Assembly (NCBI GenBank): GCA_020137815.1
Contig: CM035362.1
Coordinates: forward strand, 5,084,001-5,148,000
DNA: 64,000 bases
From: Hormiphora californensis
Lineage: Eukaryota; Animalia; Ctenophora
Direction of reading: 5' to 3'
Below are positions 23,002-60,317 of the stretch, piece after piece; position 1 is the first letter of the stretch; every line of letters starts with the position of its first letter. Below the pieces are notes generated by a model, which searched no databases, was not told the origin of the DNA, and saw only the letters and a program-made list of their open reading frames with translations. The position numbers and the translations under genes are program-made.

Positions 23002-23508
23002 NTGGATATCTATATTTGAGTTAGTACATTCAGAAAATCGTTGTTTTCAATGCTTGTATTGGGTTAGGGTAAGTATATGGTGACCACACATTGGGTAACC
23101 CGCCCATAGCAACTCACATAACAGGCAGATTACCCAATGTGTCTATTTGGTGTGGGTAATTAGAACAATATGGGAGTAGTGGGAAAACTGTGAATTTCAA
23201 CCCCTTTGTAACAGTCACGTGACCAGTGGTCATGTGACTGTTACAGTTGAACACGTGACTGTACAAATGTCACATAGCTGTTACAGTGACCTAAATAGCG
23301 AGTTCTGATTGATTGTTTACTTGTGTCGGTCGGTTCCTGCTCAGTACTAACGCAGTACCAAAGTGATCAATCTATTGAAATGCAGGACCTCCATAAATTA
23401 CCATGTTTCTGGTCGACCTTTTCCTGTGTAATACCCCTGAAAGCGTGCGTTAGAGAATTAACATTAGAAACCTTATGTAACAGTGATATGTAACAGTTAT
23501 ATTTTCAG

Positions 23509-30660: not shown

Positions 30661-33600
30661 ATGGCGGGAATGTTAGGGGAGCGGATCTTCAAGGCATTGA
30701 AACCCTTAGTCCTGCTGTTGTACAAGCCCTTGAGGCGGCCGAGTTTGATGATGATAACACCGCCCCTGTCGCAACTCCACAGGAGAAAACACATGGTAAG
30801 AGCGTGGGTGGGGGGTCTAGTAGAGGTTGTTGAAGTGGGTGGGGGGGGTCTAGTAGAGGTTGTTGAAGTGGGGGGGGGGGGTCTAGTAGAGGTTGTTGAA
30901 GTGGGGGGGGGGAGGTCTAGTAGAGGTTGTTGAAGTGGGGGTGACGGGGTCTAGTAGAGGTTGTTGAAGTGGGGGGGGGTCTAGTAGAGGTTGTTGAAGT
31001 GGGGGGGGGGGGGGGTCTAGTAGAGGTTGTTGAAGTGGGGGGTATAGTAGAGGTTGTTGAAGGGGGGGGGGGTCTAGTAGAGGTTGTTGAAGTTGGGGGG
31101 GGGGTCTAGTAGAGGTTGTTGAAGTGGGGGGGGGGGGCGTCTAGTAGAGGTTGTTGAAGTGGGGGATTTTCTGATAAGAATTGAACTTTTGTTTATTGGA
31201 CAATGGGTTGTAGAATGGATTTGAACTCCCTGATTCCACCTCTGTCTTTTTGAACTCCCTGTTTCTCTAACACTCACTGACCTCTCTGATTCTCTAACCT
31301 CTAGGACTAGGGAGGTATATTATTGTCTATAATTTCTCTAACACTAACCTCATTTCAGCTATCAAGAGGATAGTAAACTCGCTCTCCCAATTATCATCCC
31401 TCCCCGATCGAGGCAAGGACTACCACGAGTTCGTGGGGTTAGTCCTTGAAAACCTCCTAATCTGCTGTAACGACTCAGCCCCGGATGTACGAGTGGCGGC
31501 AGATGAGGGACTCAACCACTTGATAAATGAGCTGCACTCGGCAGACGCCGCTAAAATCCAGTTGGAGCTGTTCAAAGAGATAAAGCGAAATGCTAGCCCT
31601 CGAAGGGTTAAAGCGGCGATAGTGAGATTCGCTGAGTTGGCTCACTTGATAAAACCTCAGAAATGCCGGGTATACGTCATGAACCTACAGCCCCTACTGA
31701 TCACAATTAGTGCCAGAGAAGAGGAGTCCATTCAGGAGTGTCTAACAGGGGCATTACCTAAAATCCTGACTGTCCTTGGCCCGTTTTTTAGTGAGGGAGA
31801 ACTGTTTACATTCATCTCCCATCTCTTTACAACACTGGTGTCCAAGGTGGCTGCCTCTCGGCGTATGTCAGCGGAGTGCATCACGTCTCTCTGTAATTCC
31901 TGCCTTAAACCGGGGATCTTCTACGCATTGTCGATTGAAAGACTGCTGGTTCTCTGTATCGATCCTTCTGCCTCGCCCGCGTCTCTGATCGGGGGATTCC
32001 TCGGACTTCGAAAGATTCTGGGCTCTCTGCCAAGTCTGCCTAAACGAGAGGAAGATAAGAGGTTCTTCAACCTAGATCACGTGGCCTGTATCCTGCTGGT
32101 GATACTTCGGAATCTCTCACACGCTGATCATAACGTTATAACAGCAGCTCTGTCCACTCTTCAGACGCTAATTGAACAAACGAGGGTCAGTGTTGGAGAG
32201 CTGTTGATGGGAAACGTGGGAGTTTGGAAATCGAAAATTCCAAGGTCGGAACTTGGGAGACTTCATGGTGGGAACCCGACACACAAACAAGAACATGTTA
32301 CTGGCAGCGGATGGATCAGGGATGGTGGAGGAGACTGAGATGGATGGGGTGGTGGGGGAGGTACTTGAGGGTAAGGAGGAGGAGAGTTTGATTGTTGCCA
32401 CGGCCGTCCTTCTCTCCCAGCGGTTCTTAGTCGATGGGAACGGTGATCAGGTCAAAAAGATCAGAGTCAGTGTAAAGTCACTAGTTCTGTCCTGCCTAAC
32501 AGAGCTCACGGTTATCTCACCTGGCCTGCTCCCCGACCATCTGTCCTCCCTTCCAGTGATCTTCAAGGCGGACTGTGACCCAATGCTTCAGGGAAATGTC
32601 ATGACACTCTGTGGAACATACATCCTCAACTATCTACAGAATCATTTCTACCAAGGGTGGAGTAGTGAGTGTGATGAGTACATTGGTCTTATCATCGGTT
32701 GTATTGGCGATGAATCGCAGAAAGTACACAAATCCTGTTGTGATGCTTCCAAGATCTTTGTCGGGGCGTTAATGAGGACAAGGAAATGTGAGACAGTGAT
32801 AAGGCTGGTGGAGTCTCTGCTAACTCTTCACACTAGCTCCTATTGGTTGGTCAAAACAGCCCTGTTAGAAGGTGTTGCGAGAGGTTGATTTTGCTGTCCT
32901 AAGCTGCTATAATGTTGAACTGGTGCCTCGAGCTACAACGGGATGTGGTTGAGGCTTTGTTCTTGATGCTCGCGGATGAGGATGTCCGAGTTCAAACATC
33001 CTGCACGGTCACTATCGCAACGCTGGTTGAGAAACTCAACTTTACCCGAACTCCCCTTCGCTCTTCTCACCAATCTGATTCGTGGGGATTTTGTGCGGAG
33101 TTTTGAGTTTGTGAACCCTCCCGTTTATGCCATCTGTCTGCCAAGTGACGCAAGCCAAACGTTAGAGTCTTCCAAATCTCCCCTGCACATAAAACCTCTT
33201 TCCAGATTGCTCAACCTTCTTCTAGAGCGAATGGTTTCAAGTCAATCCGATGACCTGGTAAGGGATGTATTGAGACTTTCGCGTGCCTTGCCTCTCAGTA
33301 CATATCAGGTGACACCCTCAAAATCTGGGGCATAACGGTATGCGAAGAGCAGACTTTGGGAAGTTCAAGCGGTCTAATCTCATTCTTCACCCACTACCTG
33401 ACCAGCTCCATGTACATGTATGACATTTCGTGCCACCAGAACCTCCTGGCCGTGATCACGTATCTACTCGGTGCGACATGTAAAATGCTGATAACAGCTC
33501 AGAGCTACACCCCTGATACGATCCTCAGCTGGCAGCATTTGAAGGATGAGGGGCTGGTTGAGATAATCAAGACGCTCGTCTTCCACTCGATGAGGGTTCT

Positions 33601-36600
33601 GAACATTTGTTCTCACGTTTGTACGGAGGTAGAGCCAAGTAAGGATACCAAATTACCGGGCATCAAACGGAAGAAAGATGGTGAAAATGATCCACAAAAG
33701 ATTGGGGAGCAGTTGTCAGAGCAATCATCAAAAGTTGGACTTTTTACCCATCTCCCTCACTACATGAAGCTATTTGAGAACCTCAAAGCATCTTACGAAG
33801 CCCATAAAGTATCCCTGGATCTGCAAAGTGACGAGAAGTTCGTGTTGGTGCTCCGGGGAACGCTAACCCTCCTCCAAGAAATCCTAAAATACAGCTCCCT
33901 GAAAAATGTGGGCGGTTTTAGTGAAGAAATTAACGAATACATGGAGAAGCTGCTGAAGAAAGAACCGATTCAGTGTGTAACAACTACACGATATCTCCTC
34001 GCGGCATTGTTCGGGACCAACGTGATTTGCCCGACAAAGATGACGCCAGTTGGAGATAATGCACGGGTGAACAGACCAGTGCCGCTTCAACCATCCACCC
34101 CACTTCATGTTGAGTTTTTCAAGTACTCTCCCTACGTCTACAACAACATGAGGACAGTGTCACCTGAAGGAGGAGGAGGAGAGGAAAGTGAAGAAGAGAA
34201 CTCTTCGTTCGCTTCCAAGATCTTCGGCAGGAAGTTTAATCGAGCTGCTAAAAAGAAGCCAGAACAACAGGATTCCCTTCCTGTTATGCAGAATTACATT
34301 CGGTTCTTTGAGACAGTGGTTATGAAGTCTCTTGAGCTTTATACCATCACCAGTGACACACCCGTTCAGGGAGAAATCTTGGTTCTTCTGATTGATCTGC
34401 TGAGACTCAGAATCAACTACTCCCTTCTTGACACCGGGAAAATCTTTGTAAATTTCCTCCTGAAACAGTTTGAGTATATTGAGCAGGGACAAGTTAGAGC
34501 GGCATCAAAGCTCCTCCCCACCCTCTTCCAATTCCTAATCATGTTGACCAAGGAGCGATACCAAGAGGAAGCTGTGATAGACATCCCCCGGATAATGCAG
34601 CTTTGCGGTACTGCCATGGCCAGTGGTCAGCTGGATACGGCGAGCATCTCCGTCTCCCTGTACCCACTCATCCACGAGCTGTTCTCGGTGCAGGAGACTA
34701 AACCAGAGATAGCGACCCAGAGGGAGGTGGTTGAGAGCATTCTGCTGAAGAATGTAATTCACTATCAGGTAATTGATATCCTGTGGATGGTTCTTCACTG
34801 GTATTCCGTTGATTCTCTGAACTATAAGCGGTACTCAGCGGCTGTGTGGTCGGCCGTTTCCATAGCAATCAGTCAGAAACGGCTCGATGTCTCCCTTCAT
34901 CCTGTGGTAGTGTCCATGAAACGGTTATTGGATGTCATTGAGCTAGAGCCAAACACCATTATCTCAACCCTCCTGGATTTCCTGGGCTCTACCTCGGACA
35001 CAACCACAAAATGTGCGGTTCTGAGCCTCCTCCTACGGTACACCCTACACACGATAACAAAAGGAGGAATTGAAGGACTAGTGGCGGAATGCGGAGACTC
35101 CCTCCTAGCTGCTACTGATATTGACCCACCACTGGAGAATAAACTGCAAACATTTGTACTTTGGTCGATGAGGGAGACACTTGGGTTCTTGGTCGTCTCA
35201 CGGGAGCAACACACGCCCCACTCCGCGCTCTCCGCTCTGAACTACATCCACAAGCTGGTCCACTACTTCGAAAAGGGATCCACTACAACATGTTCCGCTG
35301 ACATTTCTCTCATATCGGAGAGGGCAGATACATTAGCCACGAAATACCCGGCAGTCGCTCTCACGGTTCATAACATCTTCCGTGCGATGGGAGAGACCCC
35401 ATGTCAGTACCCGGAAACCACCATAGTGGACAAGTTCCTCCGGGAGAGCGAGGGTGAGGTGAAACGGGATTTCAGGTCAGTTATTGTGGATATCCGTGCT
35501 GCAACGGAGCTGGATGTGGAGGGATTCGTGGAGAAAATCCACCAAATTGTGACCCTGGGCATGGAGTTGAAATACGCTACCAGCTTGTTCCTCAGTAACG
35601 TGATTGTGGATTATCTCATCGCCAAGTTGCCAGAGATGGGTGTGCTCAGTGAGGAAACTGTGGAGGGGTTGAAGGATATCAGGGAGTTTGTATCGAAAAC
35701 CAATTCCACCGAGAAGGCGAGGGATATGATAAGTGTGGTGCTGGAGAAAAGTGGGGTACAAGTGGAGGAGAAGGAAAATGAAAGAATAAACACAGGTCTG
35801 ACAAGCGATGAATTACACAAGTTCTTTGTTGAAAAGCTGACTGTCTACCCCTCGGATCCTCTGAAAATTGTACCCGTTCTCAAAGAAATGCCCTTCCACG
35901 ATCTAAAATCGGTTGTCTCCCGCCCTACCTTTGATTCTGCGCTCTTCCTCGACATGTTGGAGGTGGGAAGGAAGGAGTTGTGTGCCCAGAAATCAGCCTA
36001 CATATCCCCTGATGACCCTGTTCCACAACTTCCCTCTCTCCTTTTAGTCGGGAAGAGTCAACTGTTGGAGAGGTTGGTATCGCTGACAGGTGTCAAGACA
36101 CCTACAAAACAGAGCCAACCTAAACCAACACACACCCACACCCGGTCTACATCCCTTCCTAAATCCCTCGCTCTGTTTGTTGATAACTCTGCATTCGATG
36201 ATCCAACATCCCTTCTGGCACCGTCAACATCATGGGACGATCCAAAATGGCTCCACGACCTCTTCTGTTATACTCGGGCTACAACTACACTTCTCAATAC
36301 CTCCGTCCTATACCCTGACATTGCTTATCTTGATCCTTATCACATCCACTCTATTACCCGTCTGCTAGCCCTCTCCCTCGCTGTATCCGCCTACCATAAC
36401 CGCTTCAGCTCGGTATCAGTCTGCACGGAGTTACTGGAACTCTTACTTTCTGTTACAGTTACCCGGGATACGTGTGCCATCCTCCACTACGGTGAGGAGC
36501 TGGGGATCGTCGAGAACGTCTGGAACATCCTGCGGGGTCTCTTTGGAAAGTATCTCACCCGGAGCCAGGAAATTGAGGGAAAGATTGAGAAGATTCGGGT

Positions 36601-38858
36601 GATGGTGACGTTTGTGCTGTACCGGTTCCCAACTGACACCCACCATAACTTGTCCCTTCTGATGCTGGTTAAGAAGTGTATCCTCGCCCTAGCATCCCTT
36701 CCCTGTGTCAGCAGTTATCTCAGGATACCATCCTATTTGGCCCTCACAGTCACCCTCTCAAAACACCAACAATAACGAGTTTAACTTGTCCGACATTGAC
36801 ATTGATCTACTTCGAGATTCGGAGGTTTTGGATGATTTCCTTTACCGGAATCTTTCCTTTGGTTGGTCGACGAAGAGACAGTTTGAGGAACTGTGGGTTA
36901 CCCTTCTCGGGATGATAACCTACAACATGGATATGGAACAGGAGCAGGAGATAATCGCCGAGTTATCAGTCGTTAACCGTCTGGCAATCCGTGGAATGAC
37001 CGTCTTGCTGCTACAAACCATGTTACAACCGGTAACTGGATCTCCTAAAACAAGTATCTACCAGCACTTCCCGCGGACTCAACAGATACCATTTCTAACG
37101 ACCACCATGGGGCAAAGAATGGTGTACCCACATAAACTGGTGTTTGACAAACTTTTAGCATGTTCAAGGTGTACCCCAAGTTACCAACCGGTCTTCCCTG
37201 ATCTCAACATCTACATAGACAGCGACTTTACACAGTGTCTTATCGATATGGGAGGACCAGGGGCTCGGGCTATTGACAAGTATGGCGTGTTCCTGCATGA
37301 TCTGAACCGCATCCCGGGATCTAGTGCGTACTATCATGGTTTCTACAGTGCCACTGCTCTTAGGGAGAGAATTATCACCAATGACATCACGGATCTTGAT
37401 AACAGTGGGGTGTTTGAAAGGTCGCAACAAATCGCAAATGATACATCCGATGAACCGGATATTTTGAGTTGTCTGCAGTTCCTGGTTGACCTATTCAGGG
37501 AATGGACCCTTCCGGACTCCCAAATTCCCGCGTCCCTCCTCAACCAGATCATTGACTCCGTCAGCCAGCTGTCAGATCTGTTCCAGAAGACCCACCATTG
37601 CCAGTGGATGGTAGATGGACTGCTTCAGATACTGCTGAACCACCCCCTTGAAGATACTGTGGTCCACGGGAAGCTGCTGTATACGCTCTCCAAGGCTGTG
37701 AGTTTGTTACAAGCGGATAAAGCGGGGGAGAAGTTATTGCCGTTTGTCGAGGAAGCCCTAAACTCGGATTCCATGGTCCTCCAGCTTGCAGCCCTGAATG
37801 GTTCATTTTACCTTCTCGAATCGCAACTCAGCTGTTTCGAAGAGTCACTCGTTCAAATCCTTGCTGATTTCATACTAAACAAGCTGGCATATGACACAAC
37901 TACCCCGTTTACATTTGTCTCGACAATTTGGGCGGTGGCGGTAATCTTGCTGGAAAAGTTCCAAGATGGCTGCCCGGAGGGGTTCTCAACATTCGTCCTG
38001 CAATTCGGTATCCAAGCAACGCTTGACGACAAAACTCCGTTCGTGCTGTATCAGTTAGTAACGCGTGGCCTCCAAAAGCTCATCCTCGCGTTTTGCCTCC
38101 CCTCAAATGACATTGACACCATCACCCAAATGACGACAACCCAGTTAGGGGTGGATGACCCGCAGAAGTGTCTGTCCTCCTTTGGCCTTCTTATGACCTG
38201 TATGTACTGTGGGAGAGAGGGCAGCAGGGTTATACAACTTGAGCGGGATCAGGAGATTACAGATCAAATGTTGGCCGGGGCCATGGATAAGATGAGGAAG
38301 ATTTTGGATTGTGTTGGTCAGTGTTGTGAGATCCAAGCGAAACCACTGGCGGCTGTGATCTGTTACCTCGTCACCGATTTCTTCCCAAAGGAACAAATGA
38401 TCAACACGTTCGTGTCGGAGTTCCTCTCTCCGCGGCAGGAGAACAGGGAAATGATAGCATTAATTCTCCATGACCTGTTCCAAGGAATCATTGAGACGGG
38501 AAACTTTGCCCAAATTGCCGAGTGGGTCTTGCTAGTGTTACGGAACTTCATGCACCTCAAACCACGATCTGTCTCCGTTTGGTCCACCACGATTCTCCTC
38601 CTCTGCTCCATCACCAACCCCAAGATCCGGCAATACTTCCCGTACATCGTCAGCTCGGGGACTGTTAGCGGTGATTGGTTCGTGTTGGTTTGCAGGGAGT
38701 TTGCGGTGAGTCTGAGTGACTCAGAAAGGGTGACATTCGGTGAGATGCTCAAGGTTGGAGCTGAAGTTCACGGGGGTCACGAGTTTGAGACTGTCTCCAA
38801 ACTACTGGAAGAGTTTACCTTGGCTGGTAAGACATCTGCACAGGAGCGTGAGAATTAG
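30661..38858 (+). CDS. HTT: Huntingtin (2 exons: ~30661-30795 and 31359-38858; about 7 apparent frameshifts)
   Basis: Diagnostic HTT motifs: CCNDSAPDVRVAADEGLN, LELFKEIKRNASPR..RFAELAHLIKPQKCRVY, RVSVKSLVLSCL, YWLVK, LADEDVRV, GLFTHLPHYMKL, YIRFFE..YTITS..LRINYSLLD, GWSTKRQFEELWVTLLG, LLMTCMY, DFFP. An alternative in-frame ATG lies at 30648. Confidence 0.93.
30805..31166 (+). repeat. G-run minisatellite (TCTAGTAGAGGTTGTTGAAGT + Gn) x~11 in HTT intron 1
   Basis: Constant 21-nt core separated by G tracts of variable length. Confidence 0.9.
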
Positions 38859-42300: not shown

Positions 42301-45203
42301 TCGGTCGGTTCCTACAATCTGTCAAATCACACCGTCCCGAAACTCGCTTAGATCTTAAACTGGAGTCAGTCTCAGTCACTCTCACATTTGAGGAAAAAAT
42401 ATTTTGCGTGTTGTTTATTGTACTTAATTCATTCACAGTGTGAATTTCACACATCTCCATCTTATGATCTTGATTCTTGCAACATTTTACGGTGTTTGAA
42501 TCACCAGTTTCACATACGCCCCCCCCCCCCCCCCCCGCGATAGCCTTATTTCGTGGACACAGAAATCCTTGATTTCCCCATGCTAGCCATGCTCCAAACA
42601 GATGATTCACCAATATTTACTAACGAAGCAATAATCACCCTCAACCCCGCTCACATGCACGTAAGTTTTGGTGACGTCATATTATTCTGGTGACGTCAGA
42701 TATTACTCTCGAGGCATCCGTCCGTCAAGTTAAATCCGAAAACGTTGCCTGATCCAGCAATTCAAAACACTGTCAGGGCCGTTATTTTCTCCAGCTCAAT
42801 ATCTTGGTATCCAAGACACCTCACACTCTTCGTTTGGCGTGCTTCGTGCGCCGGCAAGGGAGGGGTAACTTCGTTACCAACTCAACATCAAGACACTATC
42901 AGAGGGAAAATGTTTACTACATTGTACATTATGGGTTCATCCAGGAACGAACTAAAACTTGTGGTGTTTTATTCCAATCGTTTTCCAAACACACATTGAT
43001 TCCATTTTGGGCTTCGAATCCATTCCATACGATCACAGACGCTATGCCAATTACCAGGTTTTCGACACCATTACCATGTACCAACAGAGACCCCTTATTA
43101 TCCCCAGCCCTAATTATAACTTCACCCCTTATCAGGAAGTGGGTGCCCCCAACTTCGAGCGATCAGGGAAACTGACAGAGGAACGAAACACCTACAAGGG
43201 TGTTGTGATCAAATACACTGAGCCAGCCGAGGCTAGGATCCCCAAGACAAAATGGAGGTTGTATCCGTTCAAGGGCGATGAAGCTCTTCAAACGATGTAT
43301 ATTCATCGGAACAGGTACCTATATGACGTCACAATTACGTCACAATGACACTCATCTCTCATGTAATTTCTCTCTTGAGTTGGACATGACAAGATTGTGT
43401 CGGAGAGCGGCGGTAGTTTTCTTGTTTGTATGTCAGGTAGCGCGCGGTAAGAAAGTTGAGATAAAACTACTTTTTCAGCAGTGCAACAACTGCACATTTT
43501 GACGCGCACCGTGGAATTGTAGCTTCTATTGTACGGAAATCGTTAAAAGCTGACAATGTCACGTGATCGTTTTATGAATGTTTGTGATTGACCAAATTAC
43601 TATTGGTTGCCTTGCTCGACCCTGAGTGGGTTAGAACACAACAAACTACTAGTGGACGGCCTTGCTACGGCGGAGTGGTGAACATGCTGGGCCCCTAATA
43701 AGCGTGTTCAGTTCGGCCTCTACTTCTTTCGGGCAGGTCATCCTCCAGACGCAGCAATCACAAACGGAGTACAAACCAAATTACCCCGAAATATTGTTAG
43801 AACCTAGAAATCGTTATGAGCAAAAAAAGTGGGGAAACAGAATTTTACGGGAATTGTATAAGATTGGCTTGCCCCTAATGATTTCTAGGTTCTACTCTCA
43901 AATCCATTTCAGTGGTTATCTTATTGGACGAGAGCGAAAGATTGTTGACATTCCAGCGGACCATCCCTCCTGTTCCTCTCAACATGCTGTCGTCCAGTTC
44001 AGGTGAGAGGAGTAGAGACCCCGGAGGGGTGAGGGGGTACTGTGGTAACCTGGGGGTGAGGGGGGGGGGGTACTGTGGTAACCTGGGGGGAGGGGAGTAG
44101 AGTGATAGTTTGGGGAGGTGAGAGGGGTACTGTGGTAACCTGAGGAGGGGAGGGGAGTAAAGTGATAACCTGAGGGGGTGAGGGGGAGTAGAGTGATAAC
44201 ATGGGGAGTTAAGAGGGGAGTACAGTGATAGCCTGGGGAGGTGAGGGGGAGTAGAGTGATAACCTGGGAGTGGGGAGGGGGTGCAGTGATAACCTGGAGA
44301 GGGGTATGAGAGGGGGAGTAGAGTGATAACCTGGGAGTGGGGGGTACAGTGATAACCTGGGGAGGGGGTGAGGGGTCAGGGGGTACAGTGATAACCTGGA
44401 GGGGTAGAGTGATAACCTGGGGAGGTGAGGGTGGGAGGGGAGGGGAGTAAAGTGATAACCTGGGGGTGAGGGGAGTACACTGTACAGTGATAACCTGGAG
44501 AGGGGGTGAGAGGGTAGAGTGATAACCTGGGGAGGTAAGGGAATACTGCAGTGATGGTCCCAGCATGGGGGGTTATTAAAAATCAGTTAGATATATTATA
44601 TCAGTCCGTCATATTTGCCGTCCATATAGCATTGTCTCTTGGTATACCGTGCCTTTCGGTGTATCTGCAGCATTATAAAAAAAGTAACCAGGATGGAACC
44701 GACCGAATCAGGAAATACTGGTCCCTAATTGGCTGATAACCAGTCACGTGACCTAAATAACGAGTTCTGATTGGTTGTTTACTTGTTTCGGTCGGTTCCT
44801 GATATATAAACCAACCCAAACTCCACGCAGATTGGTGGAACACACCCGGGTGGATGGGTCACAGACAAAGAAGGTTAAACCTTACATGATGGACTTGGAG
44901 TCAACAAATGGGTCCTTTCTTAACAACGTCAAAATCGAACCAAGAAGGTAATTTAGCAGGAACCGACCGAATCAGGATTCAGGAAATACTGGTCCCTGAT
45001 TGGCTGATAACCAGTCAGTAGTCACGTGACCTAAATAACGAGTTATGATTGGTTGTTTACTTGTCTCAGCTGTTATTCTAACTACCATTCTCTCCAGGTA
45101 TTACGAACTAAAGGAGCGTGATATTATCAAGTTTGGGTTCAGTTCACGGGAGTATGTTCTACTACACGAGAGGAGCGAGGGAGTTAGGGACGGGGAGAGT
45201 TGA
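39382..45203 (+). CDS. SNIP1: SNIP1/Pml1 FHA-domain RES-complex protein (exons 39382-39472, 41511-41663, 41887-42068, 43136-43314, 43913-44002, 44831-44947, 45098-45203)
   Basis: RS/charged N-terminus, then PNFERSGKLTEERNTYKGVVIKYTEPAEARIPKTKWRLYPFK, YLIGRERKIVDIPADHPSCSSQHAVVQFR, VKPYMMDLESTNGSFLN, YYELKERDIIKFGFSSREYVLLHE. GT-AG junctions with consistent phases. Confidence 0.93.
39551..41280. mobile_element. Palindromic Tc1/mariner-like element (TIR CGGTGGCAGATTCCGGCC, TA TSD) in SNIP1 intron 1
   Basis: Near-perfect long inverted arms with TA on both sides. Confidence 0.88.
40190..40946. mobile_element. Nested foldback element (TIR ACGGGTGACAACTAAAAATTGTCCCT, TA TSD)
   Basis: It interrupts the right arm of the host. 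Removal restores ggtcaattagacccaatt. Confidence 0.85.
44020..44545 (+). repeat. G-rich minisatellite (AGTGATAACCTGGGG.. units) in a SNIP1 intron
   Basis: About 17 degenerate units of about 30 nt. Confidence 0.85.
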
Positions 45204-45224
45204 TTCCCCAGATTTGAGGGTTAA

Positions 45225-46396: not shown

Positions 46397-47339
46397 GTTC
46401 TTTTCGCCCCTTTCAACGTCAATAACACGGTTGCCATAGCAACTGAATTGGTAACTATGGGGACTGGCATTCGAAAATATTAATAAACTTCCAATGGAAG
46501 TAACTATGGGGACTGGCATTCGAAAATATTAATAAACTTCCAATGGAAGTTCCAAAAGTGTGAATGATAGCTTTACAGCTTTGGTCACATAACATGTTTT
46601 ATGAAGGAGCAGCCTGTCGCTTAGATACCGCCTAACGAACGACCACTTCGACGTTCATCTCCAACTTATAATAGAGATCCTTTGATCCACATTCCAGCTT
46701 TCAGAGCATAGGCTTGACCCTATTCCTCAATCCTCTCGCGCGCGAGAACAGAAGTCAGAGCATTCCTGTGTAAAGCGACCAACCTCACAAACCCCAATCA
46801 TTTGCAGATATTAAAAAGAATGAAATGAATATCCTCCCCTGCAATGAGCACGGATAGATAAAGCTGCCTTCTCAGATGATGTATGTGATCCGAATGAGAC
46901 ATTGAAAGATGCGTCATTATTTCTTGCTCACAAATAAGGTACTTTGTTCTGCAGTTACTTAGTTTTCCAATTCTCACTCTCAGTTCTCGAATGACCAACA
47001 TATAATATATTACGTTCGTCACTGGATTTAGTTTTTTTTCTTGTGGTTATTTCGTTGGATTTTGCTCTTGATGCTTTTTGTCCAACAAATGATGTATCGC
47101 TTGACTATTCTTGATTTGAGTCTCATAATGGATAACAGTTTTAAAATGTTTCCTACTCAGGAACTGACCGAATCAGGAAATACTGGTCCCTGATTGGCTG
47201 ATAACCAGTCACGTGACCTAAATACCGAGTTCTGTTTGGTTGTTTACTTGTTTAGGTCGGTTCCTGATAACAGTTAATGGGTTGATTGGAGCGAGTCTAA
47301 CTTGTCCAAGGGGGGAGACACACTGAAGTTGGTCGCGCG

Positions 47340-48689
47340 GGGGGGGGGGGGGCCGCGTGAATTTAATATCCATGTCCTAAATAAACACGTCCGACTTTAA
47401 TGTCCCTGGGACATTAAAGGACATTAAAGGACATTAAAAGACATTAAAGGACACTTAATTAAAACATGAATTTTCAGCTATTATTAAACTAAAATGGTAT
47501 TTTCAGCCACTTAATATTTACTCCTAATGTCCCCTCTATCGATTCCAACCAATACCATGGATGTTGGGGGTGATTACGCCTCATTTTAGGGTGGCCCGGT
47601 ACCTCTAAGCGAACCCCGGAAATTTTGAAGTTTTGGACTAAATGTCAAGGTTTTAGAGTGAAAATAGCCTCGATTTTGATGAAACTCAGTCAGAATGGTC
47701 TTTGGTGTCTAATTAGAAGTCAAAAAATTTTTAAGGGCTAAAATCCTAAATTTAGGTTTTCCTAGGTTTTTTAGGTTTTTTGTGGCTTTTATGGGTTTTA
47801 GGAAAGTCCTAGAACAAAATAAACAGAACCATCTTTCTCGGCGTGAAATTCTGCATCGATTATAGTGGCTACAAACCTTTCTATGACGTAAGGTAAAAAC
47901 CTTACCACATGAAGCATACCCGTTTGGTTAAAACATGTGGTAAGGTTTTTTAGGTTTTATTCGTTACACAGACATCGCAGATCAAAATGGTTTTCACTAA
48001 AATTATTTCCTCATCAATACACGTCGATTGAGTACCTATAACATGGTGTTCTGACAAGAGGTTCGCCCGTTAGCCTAAAACATGTACCCGCCCCTATAAG
48101 ATGTACCCGTTTGGGATTTTTTGGGATAACTTCTTAACCTTACGCCATAGAAAGGTTTGTAGCCACTATAATCGATGCAAAATTTCACGCCGAGAAAGAT
48201 GGTTTTATTCATTTTGTTCTAGGACGTTCCTGAAACCCATAAACGCCAAAAAACCTAAAAAACCTAAATATCGTATATTTTGGGTTTGACCACTAAAACT
48301 TTTTTGACTTCTAATTAGACACCAAACACTATTCTGACAAAATCGGGGATGTTCTCTACTCGTTTCATAAGATGATTTTGAGATATCGTCTAGCCTAGAA
48401 TTATGCACATGTAAAAGAGGTACCGCACCCACGGTCCACGCAAAAGCAAGCCTAATCACCACTGAAAACTAATGAACATTAATTGGAATCGAAAGATGGG
48501 ACCTTTAGTAGTACATTGGTGGTAGAAATGTTTGGTAACACATTTTGAAATGGTTAAAATTTCTTGTCCTTTAATGTCCTTTAATGTCCTTTAATGTCTT
48601 TTAATGTCCCAAATTACCCCGGACAATTTAATGTCCCAAAAATCGAGGGACATTAAAGGACATTTTAATACGCGGGCCCCCCCCCCCCC
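47340..48689. mobile_element. Element with poly-G/poly-C termini and 8-bp TSD GTCGCGCG
   Basis: Subterminal GACATTAAAG repeats are inverted at the two ends. Inserted in a palindromic element spanning ~47310-49116. Confidence 0.8.
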
Positions 48690-49302
48690 GTCGCGCGCGT
48701 TCAACTCTCAACCTCGCGACACACACTGAAGTTCGAAGTTCGAAGTTTCGCGGAAAAGTTCAAAGTTTCGCGAAAACCCATTTTCGGCTGAGAAATTATT
48801 TGTAAGATGCTAATTTATTTACTGGTACATCTATCGAGGTGCCTTTTATCAATACCGGGTCAATTTCACCGTTTTTAAAATTTTTGGTGAATTGGGACAA
48901 CTGTGACCGGATTAGCCAAAAATTCAAAAACGGTGAAATTGACTCAGTATGGATAAAGGACATCTCGAGAGATGTACCAGTAAATAAGTTAGCCTCTTAC
49001 AAATGATTTCTCAGCCGAAAATGGGGTTTCGCGAAACTTCGAACTTCGAACTTCAGTGTGTGTCGCGAGGTTGAGATTTGAACGAGCGCGCCCAACTTCA
49101 GTGTGTCTCGCCCCCAATCAACACATGTACTGCTTTTTTGTCATTATATATGGGGAGTGGGTGCTGCCAGAGCATTGGCCTGACCCTATTCTCATTTCTT
49201 TCACAAAGGAGCGCGAGAATTGCAGTGGTCAGAACATTAGCAGCCCCTGTATGGCGGCGCCCATACCCCAATTTGATTCTGAGCGCGCGACAGTGTGGGG
49301 GC

Positions 49303-49346
49303 GGTTTCAACACTTTTCAACACTACTTTAAACAAATTAATTTGAG
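49303..49346 (+). other. Genomic copy of a ctenophore-type spliced-leader exon
   Basis: GTTTCAACACTTTTCAACACTACTTTAAACAAATTAATTTGAG matches my recollection of the ctenophore SL. No GT donor follows it. Confidence 0.8.
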
Positions 49347-49381
49347 CTGAAGAAGGGGCACAACCCCGAAACGTTCCCAAA
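49341..49381 (+). ncRNA. Minimal type I hammerhead ribozyme motif
   Basis: UUUGAG-CUGAAGA-A-GGGG cacaa CCCC-GAAAC-GU-U-CCCAAA: both core boxes, a 4-bp stem II, a palindromic ACGU stem III, and stem I with 5 of 6 pairs. Confidence 0.65.
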
Positions 49382-50253
49382 CCACCATGTTTTGACTTCG
49401 TATCATATGACCTCCCACCCCCGGACGTGTCACCCCACACAGACTTAAATATTTGTCAACATTTTTGTTGTTGTAGACGATGTAGTAGACAATGGGCTCC
49501 TTTCCATGCGTGACCTGCTGCAGTCGGTAAACTGTTAAACATTTTCCAGATTTATCAACAATTTTGTTGTTATATAACAATATACCTACGCCACAATATT
49601 ATATAACAATATACGTCACAATATAACAATATATATATACCTGCTCGGTGACCCACGGTTTTTCCTCATTCCATGCTTCTCCGATGACTGTCTAGGGGGT
49701 CAATACTAAATAAGTTTTTAACCTTTAGTGAAATCAAATATACAACAATATATTTTAAAAAAAAAATTAATCGAGAATCAAATATAGTTAAAAAAGAAAA
49801 ACAAAATTTGTGCGGGTTCCCTTTAGGAGGAGAAATTGACAATATATGGAAATCTATAATTATATAGATTCCCCATTTGTCAATTTCTCGCTAAGGGACA
49901 ACCTACAATGGTACCCGGGTTATTTGGATTAACGGAATGATTTGAAATATGTTATCATAGGTTTTAACTTTAAACTCTCCACTCTACATCTCAACTGTGA
50001 CTTCCTCCCCCTCTCTGTTTAGGGTATGTCTCATCCTCTATCTATCGAAACTCCTCACTCATCTAACCACTACCTCTAACCCCAGCCCACCTTCCCACCC
50101 CCACCTTTCCCCCTCTATCTGTCCTGATTCTCCGTCTCAACGCGACCAAATCGTCACTAGATCGTCACTAGATCGTCACGACTTGTGTACCAATTGCTAT
50201 TTGTTGACAAGTGTCATCAGTTTGTTAAGTAACTCGATAATCTTCTTCTGCAG

Positions 50254-57804
<7,551 letters not shown>

Positions 57805-58854: not shown

Positions 58855-60317
58855 CACGGCGTGCCCGAGGGTAGTTTAACATTTGTTTGAGTGCACACCT
58901 CCAATTCCGGTTGTAACTGGTCGGGAAGACCTCCCTGAAGGTCGTGGCGGTGCGGGAAAAATAGGGTAGACCTGCTGCGGCTTCAGAAAATTGAGAAAAA
59001 GATAGCTATCTTTTTTTTCACTTTGAAAATAAGACGTTTTTTATTAAAAGATCCTTGATCAGTGAGATACGGTTGTCCCCCACCTATTTTTTGACGTAGA
59101 ATCGAATGCCGTTGAAGTCAAATCTCTAAAATGTTGGCAAAATGGAGAAAATCACGTTTTTAGGTGTTTTTTGGTGAAAAAAGCGTTCAAACTGGTAGTA
59201 GATGATGGGATAGAGTCCCAAAAATATCATAAATCGATTTTTTGGGTCTTTTTCGCCCTAGAAACAGAGTTTCATGAAAATCTGGTACAACGCCTATTCT
59301 CCGTTTGCTTTCAAAGAAGCTGAATATTGCTCTAATTTAGCCAATTTTGAAGAAAAGGCGTCCAAAATGATACCAGTTGACAGGATAGAGTCCCAAAAAC
59401 GTGAAAATCATCAATTTTAGGCATTTTATACCCTAGAAACAAATGGACATGGTGGTCGAATGATATTTTTTATCTCGGTAGGCCTCTGAAGTATGTGGAA
59501 ATAGCCACAATGTAGAGATTGTGGTAAATTAATGTGAATAAACGTTTACCAAACCCACTTTAGTGGGCTTCTGGATTATGCAAGAGCCACTCTTCAACTT
59601 AGCAGGTGCTAAAGTGGGTTTGGTAAACGTTTATTCACATTAATTTACCACAATCTCTACATTGTGGCTATTACCACATACTTCAGAGGCCTACCGAGAT
59701 AAAAAATATCATTCGACCACCATATCCATTTGTTTCTAGGGTATAAAATGCCTAAAATTGATGATTTTCACGTTTTTGGGACTCTATCCTGTCAACTGGT
59801 ATCATTTTGGACGCCTTTTCTTCAAAATTGGCTAAATTAGAGCAATATTCAGCTTCTTTGAAAGCAAACGGAGAATAGGCGTTGTACCAGATTTTCATGA
59901 AACTCTGTTCCTAGGGCGAAAAAGACCCAAAAAATCGATTTATGATATTTTTGGGACTCTATCCCATCATCTACTACCAGTTTGAACGCTTTTTTCACCA
60001 AAAAACACCTAAAAACGTGATTTTCTCCATTTTGCCAACATTTTAGAGATTTGACTTCAACGGCATTCGATTCTACGTCAAAAAATAGGTGGGGGACAAC
60101 CGTATCTCACTGATCAAGGATCTTTTAATAAAAAACGTCTTATTTTCAAAGTGAAAAAAAAGATAGCTATCTTTTTCTCAATTTTCTGAAGCCGCAGCAG
60201 GTCTACCCTATTTTTCCCGCACCGCCACGACCTTCAGGGAGGTCTTCCCGACCAGTTACAACCGGAATTGGAGGTGTGCACTCAGACAAATGTTAAACTA
60301 CCCTCGGGCACGCCGTG
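58855..60317. mobile_element. 1.46-kb near-perfect palindrome with CAC...GTG ends and 4-bp TSD CCAT (Chapaev/CMC-like)
   Basis: Arms of about 710 bp around a short spacer near 59565-59610. CCAT at 58851-58854 and 60318-60321. Nested in a CACTCACCTCCTC-family element. Confidence 0.88.

Follow-up and report, generated by a model that had tools for sequence, protein, structure and literature searches.

The locus considered here raises the question of how a copy of a spliced leader (SL) came to lie directly in front of a hammerhead ribozyme core in the genomic DNA of the ctenophore Hormiphora californensis. The window, that is the whole 64,000-nt stretch of DNA that was analyzed and to which all positions refer, had earlier been read from its letters alone. 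This sequence-only reading placed an SL fused to a hammerhead at 49303-49381 and explained it either as a reverse-transcribed copy of a trans-spliced, ribozyme-bearing RNA or as a cis-encoded SL-ribozyme module upstream of Lhx3/4. The elements were found as described, but the unit is longer, as family similarity continues to 49439. At this locus the repeat unit consists of the SL, the hammerhead motif and a 64-nt tail, together ∼137 nt (49303-49439). The features of the unit and of its surroundings are:

49303-49346, plus strand: full-length copy of the SL exon without a GT donor behind it (comparison with the published SL, window search, contigs)
49347-49375, plus strand: minimal type I hammerhead core (motif scan and folding; features as reported in PMC4209133)
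49375-49386, plus strand: AC-rich loop, variable in length among copies, which contains the helix I partner 49376-81 (contig alignments)
49387-49394, plus strand: conserved strand with 8/8 pairing to core positions 49367-49374 (alignment, shuffles)
49376-49439, plus strand: family tail, ending in a C-run and ACA, homologous to metagenome contig L001 (alignment)
49290-49293, no strand: ACAG, possible left copy of a target duplication with its partner at 49439-49442; uncertain, as a neighboring short repeat ends in it too
49439-49442, no strand: ACAG, possible partner of 49290-49293 on the right side of the target duplication, followed by single-copy DNA (sequence and contigs)
49293-49300, minus strand: 8-nt inverted copy of the 3' end of the element (49433-49440), candidate inverted mini-tail of the type of Penelope-like elements (PLEs) (sequence match)
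51164-56520, plus strand: Lhx3/4-type LIM-homeobox gene outside the repeat, with its LIM1 exon starting at 51164 and homeodomain exons at ∼53720-54274

The leader was compared by eye with the published H. californensis SL (PMC8527503), which served as the reference. The last 35 nt of 49303-49346 are identical (35/35) and all of positions 3-44 of the published SL are matched; the two 5'-most bases differ, and the window copy has one additional C, a private insertion. For a ctenophore SL exon, >90% identity and the ending AATTTGAG are expected, and 42 of the 44 published positions plus one inserted base were found. The 44-mer is the SL of this species, as had been proposed, and no other SL copy is present in the 64-kb window. 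An Rfam search of the locus gave no match to an SL family. SL variants with 1-5 differences are also present in RNA contigs (run X9, presumed RNA), but this run reaches no farther than the SL plus some chance bases, to 49358, and has no bearing on expression.

The boundary between SL and core coincides exactly with the 3' end of the SL. Directly behind it, at 49347, CTGA adjoins, and the GT donor of an SL RNA gene is not there, as the sequence-only reading had stated. An Sm site belonging to such a gene would be expected within 20-60 nt and in a multi-copy intron; the sole Sm-like word of the form AT4-6G, ATTTTTG at 49461, lies 115 nt away in single-copy DNA. The unit at 49303-49439 is not an SL RNA gene.

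All parts of a minimal type I hammerhead of the PLE type (CUGANGA, GAAA, UH and a helix II) could be identified behind the leader: CUGAAGA, an extra A, helix II formed by GGGG and CCCC (49355-58/49364-67, with G10.1-C11.1), GAAA, a palindromic CG, U16.1 and U17, with a predicted cut after 49375 in register A. The motif is unique in the window when both strands are scanned, and 300 dinucleotide shuffles of the window yielded one such motif overall (0.003 per window). Helix II is predicted at a probability of 0.79-0.96, whether the SL is included or the short form is folded. An extra base between 9 and 10.1, G10.1-C11.1 and a palindromic 15.2-16.2 are present both in the window and in L001. The order of the strands is that of type I; a type III reading was dropped, as nothing upstream pairs with helix III. 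The covariance-model check that had been suggested did not recover the motif: no Rfam hammerhead family was matched at E values up to 10.

It had been claimed that the leader itself completes the ribozyme, its last six nucleotides supplying the 5' strand of helix I. The pairing does exist, with 5/6 positions between the end of the SL and 49376-81 (CCCAAA), but an equally good pairing with the SL end is offered by 4815 of 63894 window 6-mers (7.5% of random 6-mers). In other genomic copies the 3' strand of helix I carries a 2-nt insertion, read from inserted bases following 49377 and 49379 and from loose ends following 49376-77, and these two additional bases shift the register of helix I. The corresponding strand of L001 forms 2/6 pairs with its own upstream sequence. 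When the full SL is included, helix I has a predicted probability of ∼0.001 in the monomer ensemble, and the fold stability of the whole 79-mer is unremarkable (z -0.5). In the 79-nt RNA the 5' part of the SL is predicted to pair over the core (p ∼0.95; 0.05 with the tail included). The terminal AG of the leader could come equally from a splice acceptor. Because chance pairing is frequent, the partner strand varies among copies and the predicted helix I is rare, completion of the ribozyme by the SL as a designed feature appears weak and unsupported.

The DNA runs used for the analysis of copy number derive from three studies: X1 and X2 represent one sample, possibly the one from which the window derives, whereas X4 comes from a second study and X7 from a third. 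The SL-core junction and both flanks were recovered in these runs. A 73-nt contig of X4 (49269-49341) runs from the 5' flank into the SL, and the tail and 3' flank are bridged by contigs of X1, X2 and X4. The junction is therefore no assembly artefact and belongs to genomic DNA, as the sequence-only reading required. Among the matches listed, the best contigs span the junction with 30+30 aligned letters (X1, X2, X4), and none reaches 31 on both sides, the length set by the rule used.

To 49328-49507, 40 contigs aligned in X4, 27 in X1 and one in X7; none aligned in X8 (organism B), which is no proof of absence there. Eight of the 17 pieces among the matches listed for this interval begin at the first base of the interval, which lies within the SL, and continue into the core, including single contigs at ∼7 times (X1, no difference) and ∼10 times (X4) the single-copy depth, and X7 is also represented. 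Other loci are represented by contigs of 406, 417 and 335 nt, which follow the window over 49317-49376 and then diverge from it. For the 3' half of the core (49360-80), the depths of the contigs, which are not to be equated with copy number, add up to 3239 in X1, 32269 in X4 and 23255 in X2, compared to 24-45, 137 and 157, respectively, for the single-copy flank. The DNA from 49440 onward is single-copy in three DNA runs. On a rough reading, the genome contains tens of SL+core copies. It is concluded that SL, hammerhead and tail form a dispersed multi-copy repeat with differing flanks, which removes the earlier concern that the motif might be single-copy: SL+core contigs occur in the DNA runs of three studies and several come from other loci. 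The tandem units expected of a non-LTR retrozyme were not observed, with one motif in 64 kb and single-copy flanks. Three patterns gave no matches in viral contigs, and two bacterial genome contigs carrying the motif were rejected as chance matches, having no tail similarity and a score of 12, compared with 69 for L001.

L001 resembles the core and tail of the window copy up to 49439 (78% over 97 columns, E 9e-14). Beyond the pattern used for the search, the similarity of the tails is better than in 5000/5000 shuffles. Upstream of its core, L001 does not carry the SL. Elsewhere this contig has a YqaJ-like nuclease fragment (Pfam E 1.5e-7) and an inverted-repeat element (at 633-914 and 1185-1410, respectively); a 15-nt match between an arm of the latter and the SL (E 0.26) is probably due to chance. 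The conserved strand 49387-94 pairs with the core at 8/8 positions in both the window and L001, which was equaled in 18/20000 shuffles, and it also occurs in loose ends of runs X4 and X7. Possibly it forms a decoy hairpin or, in register B with a cut after 49391, an extension of helix III. The predicted probability of the decoy hairpin is 0.5-0.67 without the SL, ∼0.2 with the SL and at most 0.1 in L001. Register B leaves 2-3 bp of helix I adjoining the core. A consensus fold of the two sequences has 0 compensatory changes in 18 pairs.

The copies appear to have two 3' ends. Four X4 pieces extend to 49403, and loose ends in X4 and X7 carry the tail too. Groups of contigs that depart at 49376 (four in X4, five in X1) agree among themselves at only ∼5 and ∼9 of the 30 positions that follow, so that such copies seem to end inside the AC-rich loop. 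From this agreement with the consensus, many copies seem to end ∼5-9 nt past the predicted cut, at about 49381-85, and the other apparent end is 49439, which is shared with L001. A near end in the AC-rich loop and a far end (49403; 49439 with L001) would resemble the situation of an optional PLE tail.

Possible signals of insertion at this locus come from one copy each. The candidate 4-bp ACAG duplication was seen in one copy, as was the inverted 8-mer, a match that arises by chance in 178 of 100000 random window 15-mers. An empty allele was sought among the contigs of the runs and none was found; the tail is likewise present in the second allele that X1 shows at 49447.

In four copies the core is not preceded by the SL. 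The bases before CUGA are CTAG in X4, CTAG in X1, CTGG in L001, where they follow a pyrimidine tract, and TTAG plus one base in a further X4 copy. An exact YAG thus occurs at 2/4 SL-less ends, compared with 17/641 CTGA sites in the window (p 0.004), and the other two are one change away. Farther from the core the four upstream sequences diverge from each other, and they may represent copies truncated at the 5' end instead of the parent. These ends suggest that an acceptor lay directly before CUGA. A 9-nt word is common to L001 (positions 32-40) and an X4 loose end that precedes 49347, at unequal distances from the core; this word is possibly part of the upstream sequence of the parent, and in L001 it might form a 6-bp pairing with the tail just past the register B cut.

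From these data it is judged highly probable that the repeat is some family of retrocopies of an SL-bearing, hammerhead-bearing RNA, and the first of the two alternatives of the sequence-only reading is supported. Its specific form, which we favor with moderate confidence, is that 49303-49439 is a copy of a dispersed ∼137-nt repeat that arose by retrocopying of a PLE terminal-repeat RNA, trans-spliced before the core. The parent RNA would carry a YAG acceptor directly before the CUGA of the hammerhead, at the 5' end of helix I, and the host trans-splicing machinery would join the SL to this acceptor. The reverse transcriptase of the element would then start internally, in the AC-rich RNA behind the ribozyme, ∼5-9 nt or ∼64 nt past the cut site. 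Since the copies span the predicted cut, the template was uncut there. The uncut RNA would be copied up to the capped end of the SL and the short cDNA inserted at a nick, and the product would be a short insert without an ORF, sometimes with an inverted stub. Such copies are likely inert.

Several properties of PLEs agree with these steps. Penelope of D. virilis has the 3' end of its intron at the 5' end of helix I (PMC4209133). For Poseidon of Anolis, in vitro work reports that reverse transcription starts in an AC-rich stem-loop downstream of the ribozyme, that uncut RNA is the dominant template and that both strands are extended (PMC11167929). Inverted 5'-truncated PLE copies occur (PMC8557442), and the SL is found on ∼30% of the long reads of transposable elements in Hydra (PMC12220107). 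The hammerhead starts 119 nt before the end of the element here, within the range of 87-210 nt before the consensus end given for the motif start in 23 of 25 Hydra-clade PLE families, a count made from the supplement with "position" taken as the start. PLEs have been reported in the ctenophores Beroe and Mnemiopsis, but this motif is not in their consensi. Two 12-mer motifs had 0 matches in the PLE consensus files of PMC8557442, in which line breaks could hide one. No parent element and no reverse transcriptase or endonuclease ORF was found, the locus has no long ORF, and the YqaJ-like fragment in the flank of L001 is not a reverse transcriptase. PLE ancestry is thus read from the motif and the anatomy of the ends, and the unit, though like a non-autonomous terminal fragment of a PLE, cannot be filed as one.

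An alternative that we regard as unlikely is that the SL-headed unit propagates itself as a SINE, with one or a few SL+hammerhead+tail master genes being transcribed and re-copied by the PLE machinery, so that most copies would derive from DNA that already bears the SL. Near-identical subfamilies, with single contigs at ∼7-10 times single-copy depth in X1, X2 and X4, are compatible with this, but a few parent PLE families predict subfamilies equally. One multi-copy subfamily has CC instead of GU in helix III of the core (loose end at 49372). Spreading therefore probably needed no intact hammerhead core, which is in line with a SINE. The same subfamily gives an indirect hint of a shared SL change (3 differences over 49338-72, 4 over 49328-71). 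However, such a change is not diagnostic, as RNA contigs of X9 vary too. An extended version, which is likewise doubtful, makes trans-splicing a switch on the retroelement ribozyme, after which the SL-hammerhead-tail unit would spread as the first SL-headed, PLE-driven SINE. Joining of the SL would swap the helix I strand, and its 5' half, predicted to pair over both core strands, would turn off cleavage; the RNA would be capped and would serve as an uncut template. If true, this would seed part of the hundreds of genomic SL copies in ctenophores.

Decidedly improbable is a template switch, in which the reverse transcriptase jumps from the core of an unspliced element RNA onto any SL-capped RNA at a common AG. 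SL ends are plentiful, being carried by at least 56% of H. californensis long reads (PMC8527503), and AG is common to both sides of the junction. Yet a 2-nt microhomology would not pin one position, and the junction is identical in several sequence subfamilies; the SL-less copies with YAG-like ends also argue for trans-splicing of the element RNA and against such a jump.

Very little probability is also given to the capture of an SL by a tiny unit of LTR or TRIM-like type (49294-49439), bounded by TG and CA with short inverted ends. These termini, the 8-nt inverted match and the flanking ACAG repeat would fit, but a 5' end of this kind is missing from the 78 nt that precede the core of L001, many copies seem to terminate 5-9 nt past the cut, and no second LTR was found in the window. 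Moreover, LTR retrozymes are described as carrying type III ribozymes (10.64898/2026.07.22.740005), whereas the motif here is type I.

The second alternative of the sequence-only reading, a domesticated cis-encoded leader and ribozyme that controls the Lhx3/4 mRNA or releases a capped ∼70-nt RNA, is extremely improbable. The unit lies on the same strand as Lhx3/4, 0.9-1.8 kb upstream of its exons, and the insertion is present in the DNA of both sampled individuals. The homeodomain exon has Lhx4 as its best PDB match (E 3e-11). The distance of ∼0.9 kb to the first recognizable Lhx3/4 exon applies to an exon at 50254-50325 that is open and in frame with the LIM1 exon but has no recognizable domain; the first domain, LIM1, starts at 51164, 1.8 kb from the SL unit. 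Against a module stand the low predicted probability of the active helix I (∼0.001) and the reported artefact that SL-bearing reads map to the nearest genomic SL upstream, of which Schultz et al. warn (PMC8527503). Because SL and core are one of many dispersed copies of a repeat, lying among other repeats in a crowded intergenic stretch, a role specific to Lhx3/4 is unsupported, and the copy is likely a bystander and not a control module.

The interval in which the copy lies begins behind a SNIP1-like FHA-domain gene (42956-45210, plus strand; PDB E 1e-21), which ends near 45.2 kb, and is dense with short repeats up to Lhx3/4. Upstream of the SL, 49163-49203 and 49246-49280 are very high-copy short repeats, with a summed depth of up to 1.9 million in X4; the former resembles 46702-46764 and the latter recurs at 51044 and 58556. 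Nested inverted repeats (arms 47778-47909/48122-48253 and 48756-48884/48918-49046) lie at 47310-49110 in a larger unit with matching ends, and Rfam miRNA-family matches were rejected as spurious products of the long inverted repeat at 48705-49077. A dispersed repeat of ∼108 nt, in both orientations and often intronic, was found at 23233, 42070, 42208, 44695, 45227, 47160, 50341, 50670, 50906, 55318 and 58289. At 58855-60317 there is a near-perfect palindrome with 709-nt arms that are 99% complementary and a 45-nt spacer, either a young foldback element or an assembly artefact. Farther away, a Huntingtin-like gene at 31298-38858 on the plus strand (Pfam Htt N-HEAT and C-HEAT; PDB huntingtin E 6e-44) is nearly intron-free, with four very long open stretches of 346, 226, 1173 and 721 aa; these overlap in different frames, implying short introns or assembly frameshifts between them. 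On the minus strand, at 2500-23000, about seven diverged C2H2 zinc-finger gene units follow each other in tandem at intervals of 1.8-5 kb.

NeSL-type elements target SL genes in nematodes, but that an SL RNA gene was interrupted at its donor by such an SL-targeting retroelement is scarcely credible and largely refuted at this locus: the junction does lie at the donor position and the Sm-like word is present downstream, but GT does not resume behind the tail, the DNA from 49440 onward is single-copy, whereas introns of SL genes are expected to be multi-copy, and other copies have unrelated 3' flanks.

The favored reading, a PLE terminal-repeat RNA that was trans-spliced and then retrocopied, can be compared with known systems. 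The hammerhead of D. virilis Penelope is likewise a minimal or short-helix type I motif with an extra base after A9, G10.1-C11.1 and a palindromic helix III; its splice junction also lies at the 5' strand of helix I, so that spliced and unspliced RNA form different ribozymes (PMC4209133). There, however, the splice is reported to be a cis one, with the intron retained in the genomic copies. In the Hormiphora unit, in contrast, the 5' partner would be a host trans-spliced leader, with the spliced form fixed in DNA, and the unit has no ORF. With Poseidon of Anolis (PAc), the unit shares a ribozyme upstream of an AC-rich stem-loop and the copying of uncut RNA, and its two apparent 3' ends would correspond to the optional tail of PAc (PMC11167929). 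The work on PAc was done in vitro with protein, whereas for Hormiphora these properties are deduced from genomic copies, and the main PAc start lies ∼85-92 nt from the cut, compared with ∼5-9 and 64 nt here (PMC11167929).

SL sequences in DNA without a donor are also described for flatworm retroelement copies, proposed to be reverse-transcribed trans-spliced RNAs, among 597 SL loci linked to mobile elements (PMC12582326), and for dinoflagellate SL-tagged retrogenes (PMC5585692). Unlike the present unit, these are mostly partial leaders at LTR/LINE elements or genes, and the accounts drawn on here state no link to a ribozyme or PLE (PMC12582326, PMC5585692). Non-LTR retrozymes and the hammerhead SINEs of schistosomes are short non-coding type I repeats that are proposed to depend on PLEs (PMC7229834, PMC6765202, 10.64898/2026.07.22.740005); retrozymes, however, are tandem units of a few hundred nucleotides with canonical ribozymes, whereas the Hormiphora copy is solitary, minimal in type and headed by an SL. 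In H. californensis itself, 718 genomic SL copies have been reported (PMC8527503), which are the same leader and likewise dispersed; by depth, the SL-hammerhead family would account for a minority of them.

In the literature searched, precedents exist for each half, but no description of their combination, an SL-on-hammerhead junction, was found. The repeat offers a concrete source for part of the dispersed ctenophore SL copies, which distort gene models. If the favored reading is true, it would be a genomic record of a PLE reverse transcriptase copying uncut, trans-spliced RNA from internal starts in vivo. Evidence for such copying has so far come from work in vitro, and the record would also bear on the role of the ribozyme and on the reason why PLE introns are normally kept. 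The copies suggest that host trans-splicing can divert the RNA of a retroelement into short dead-end copies.
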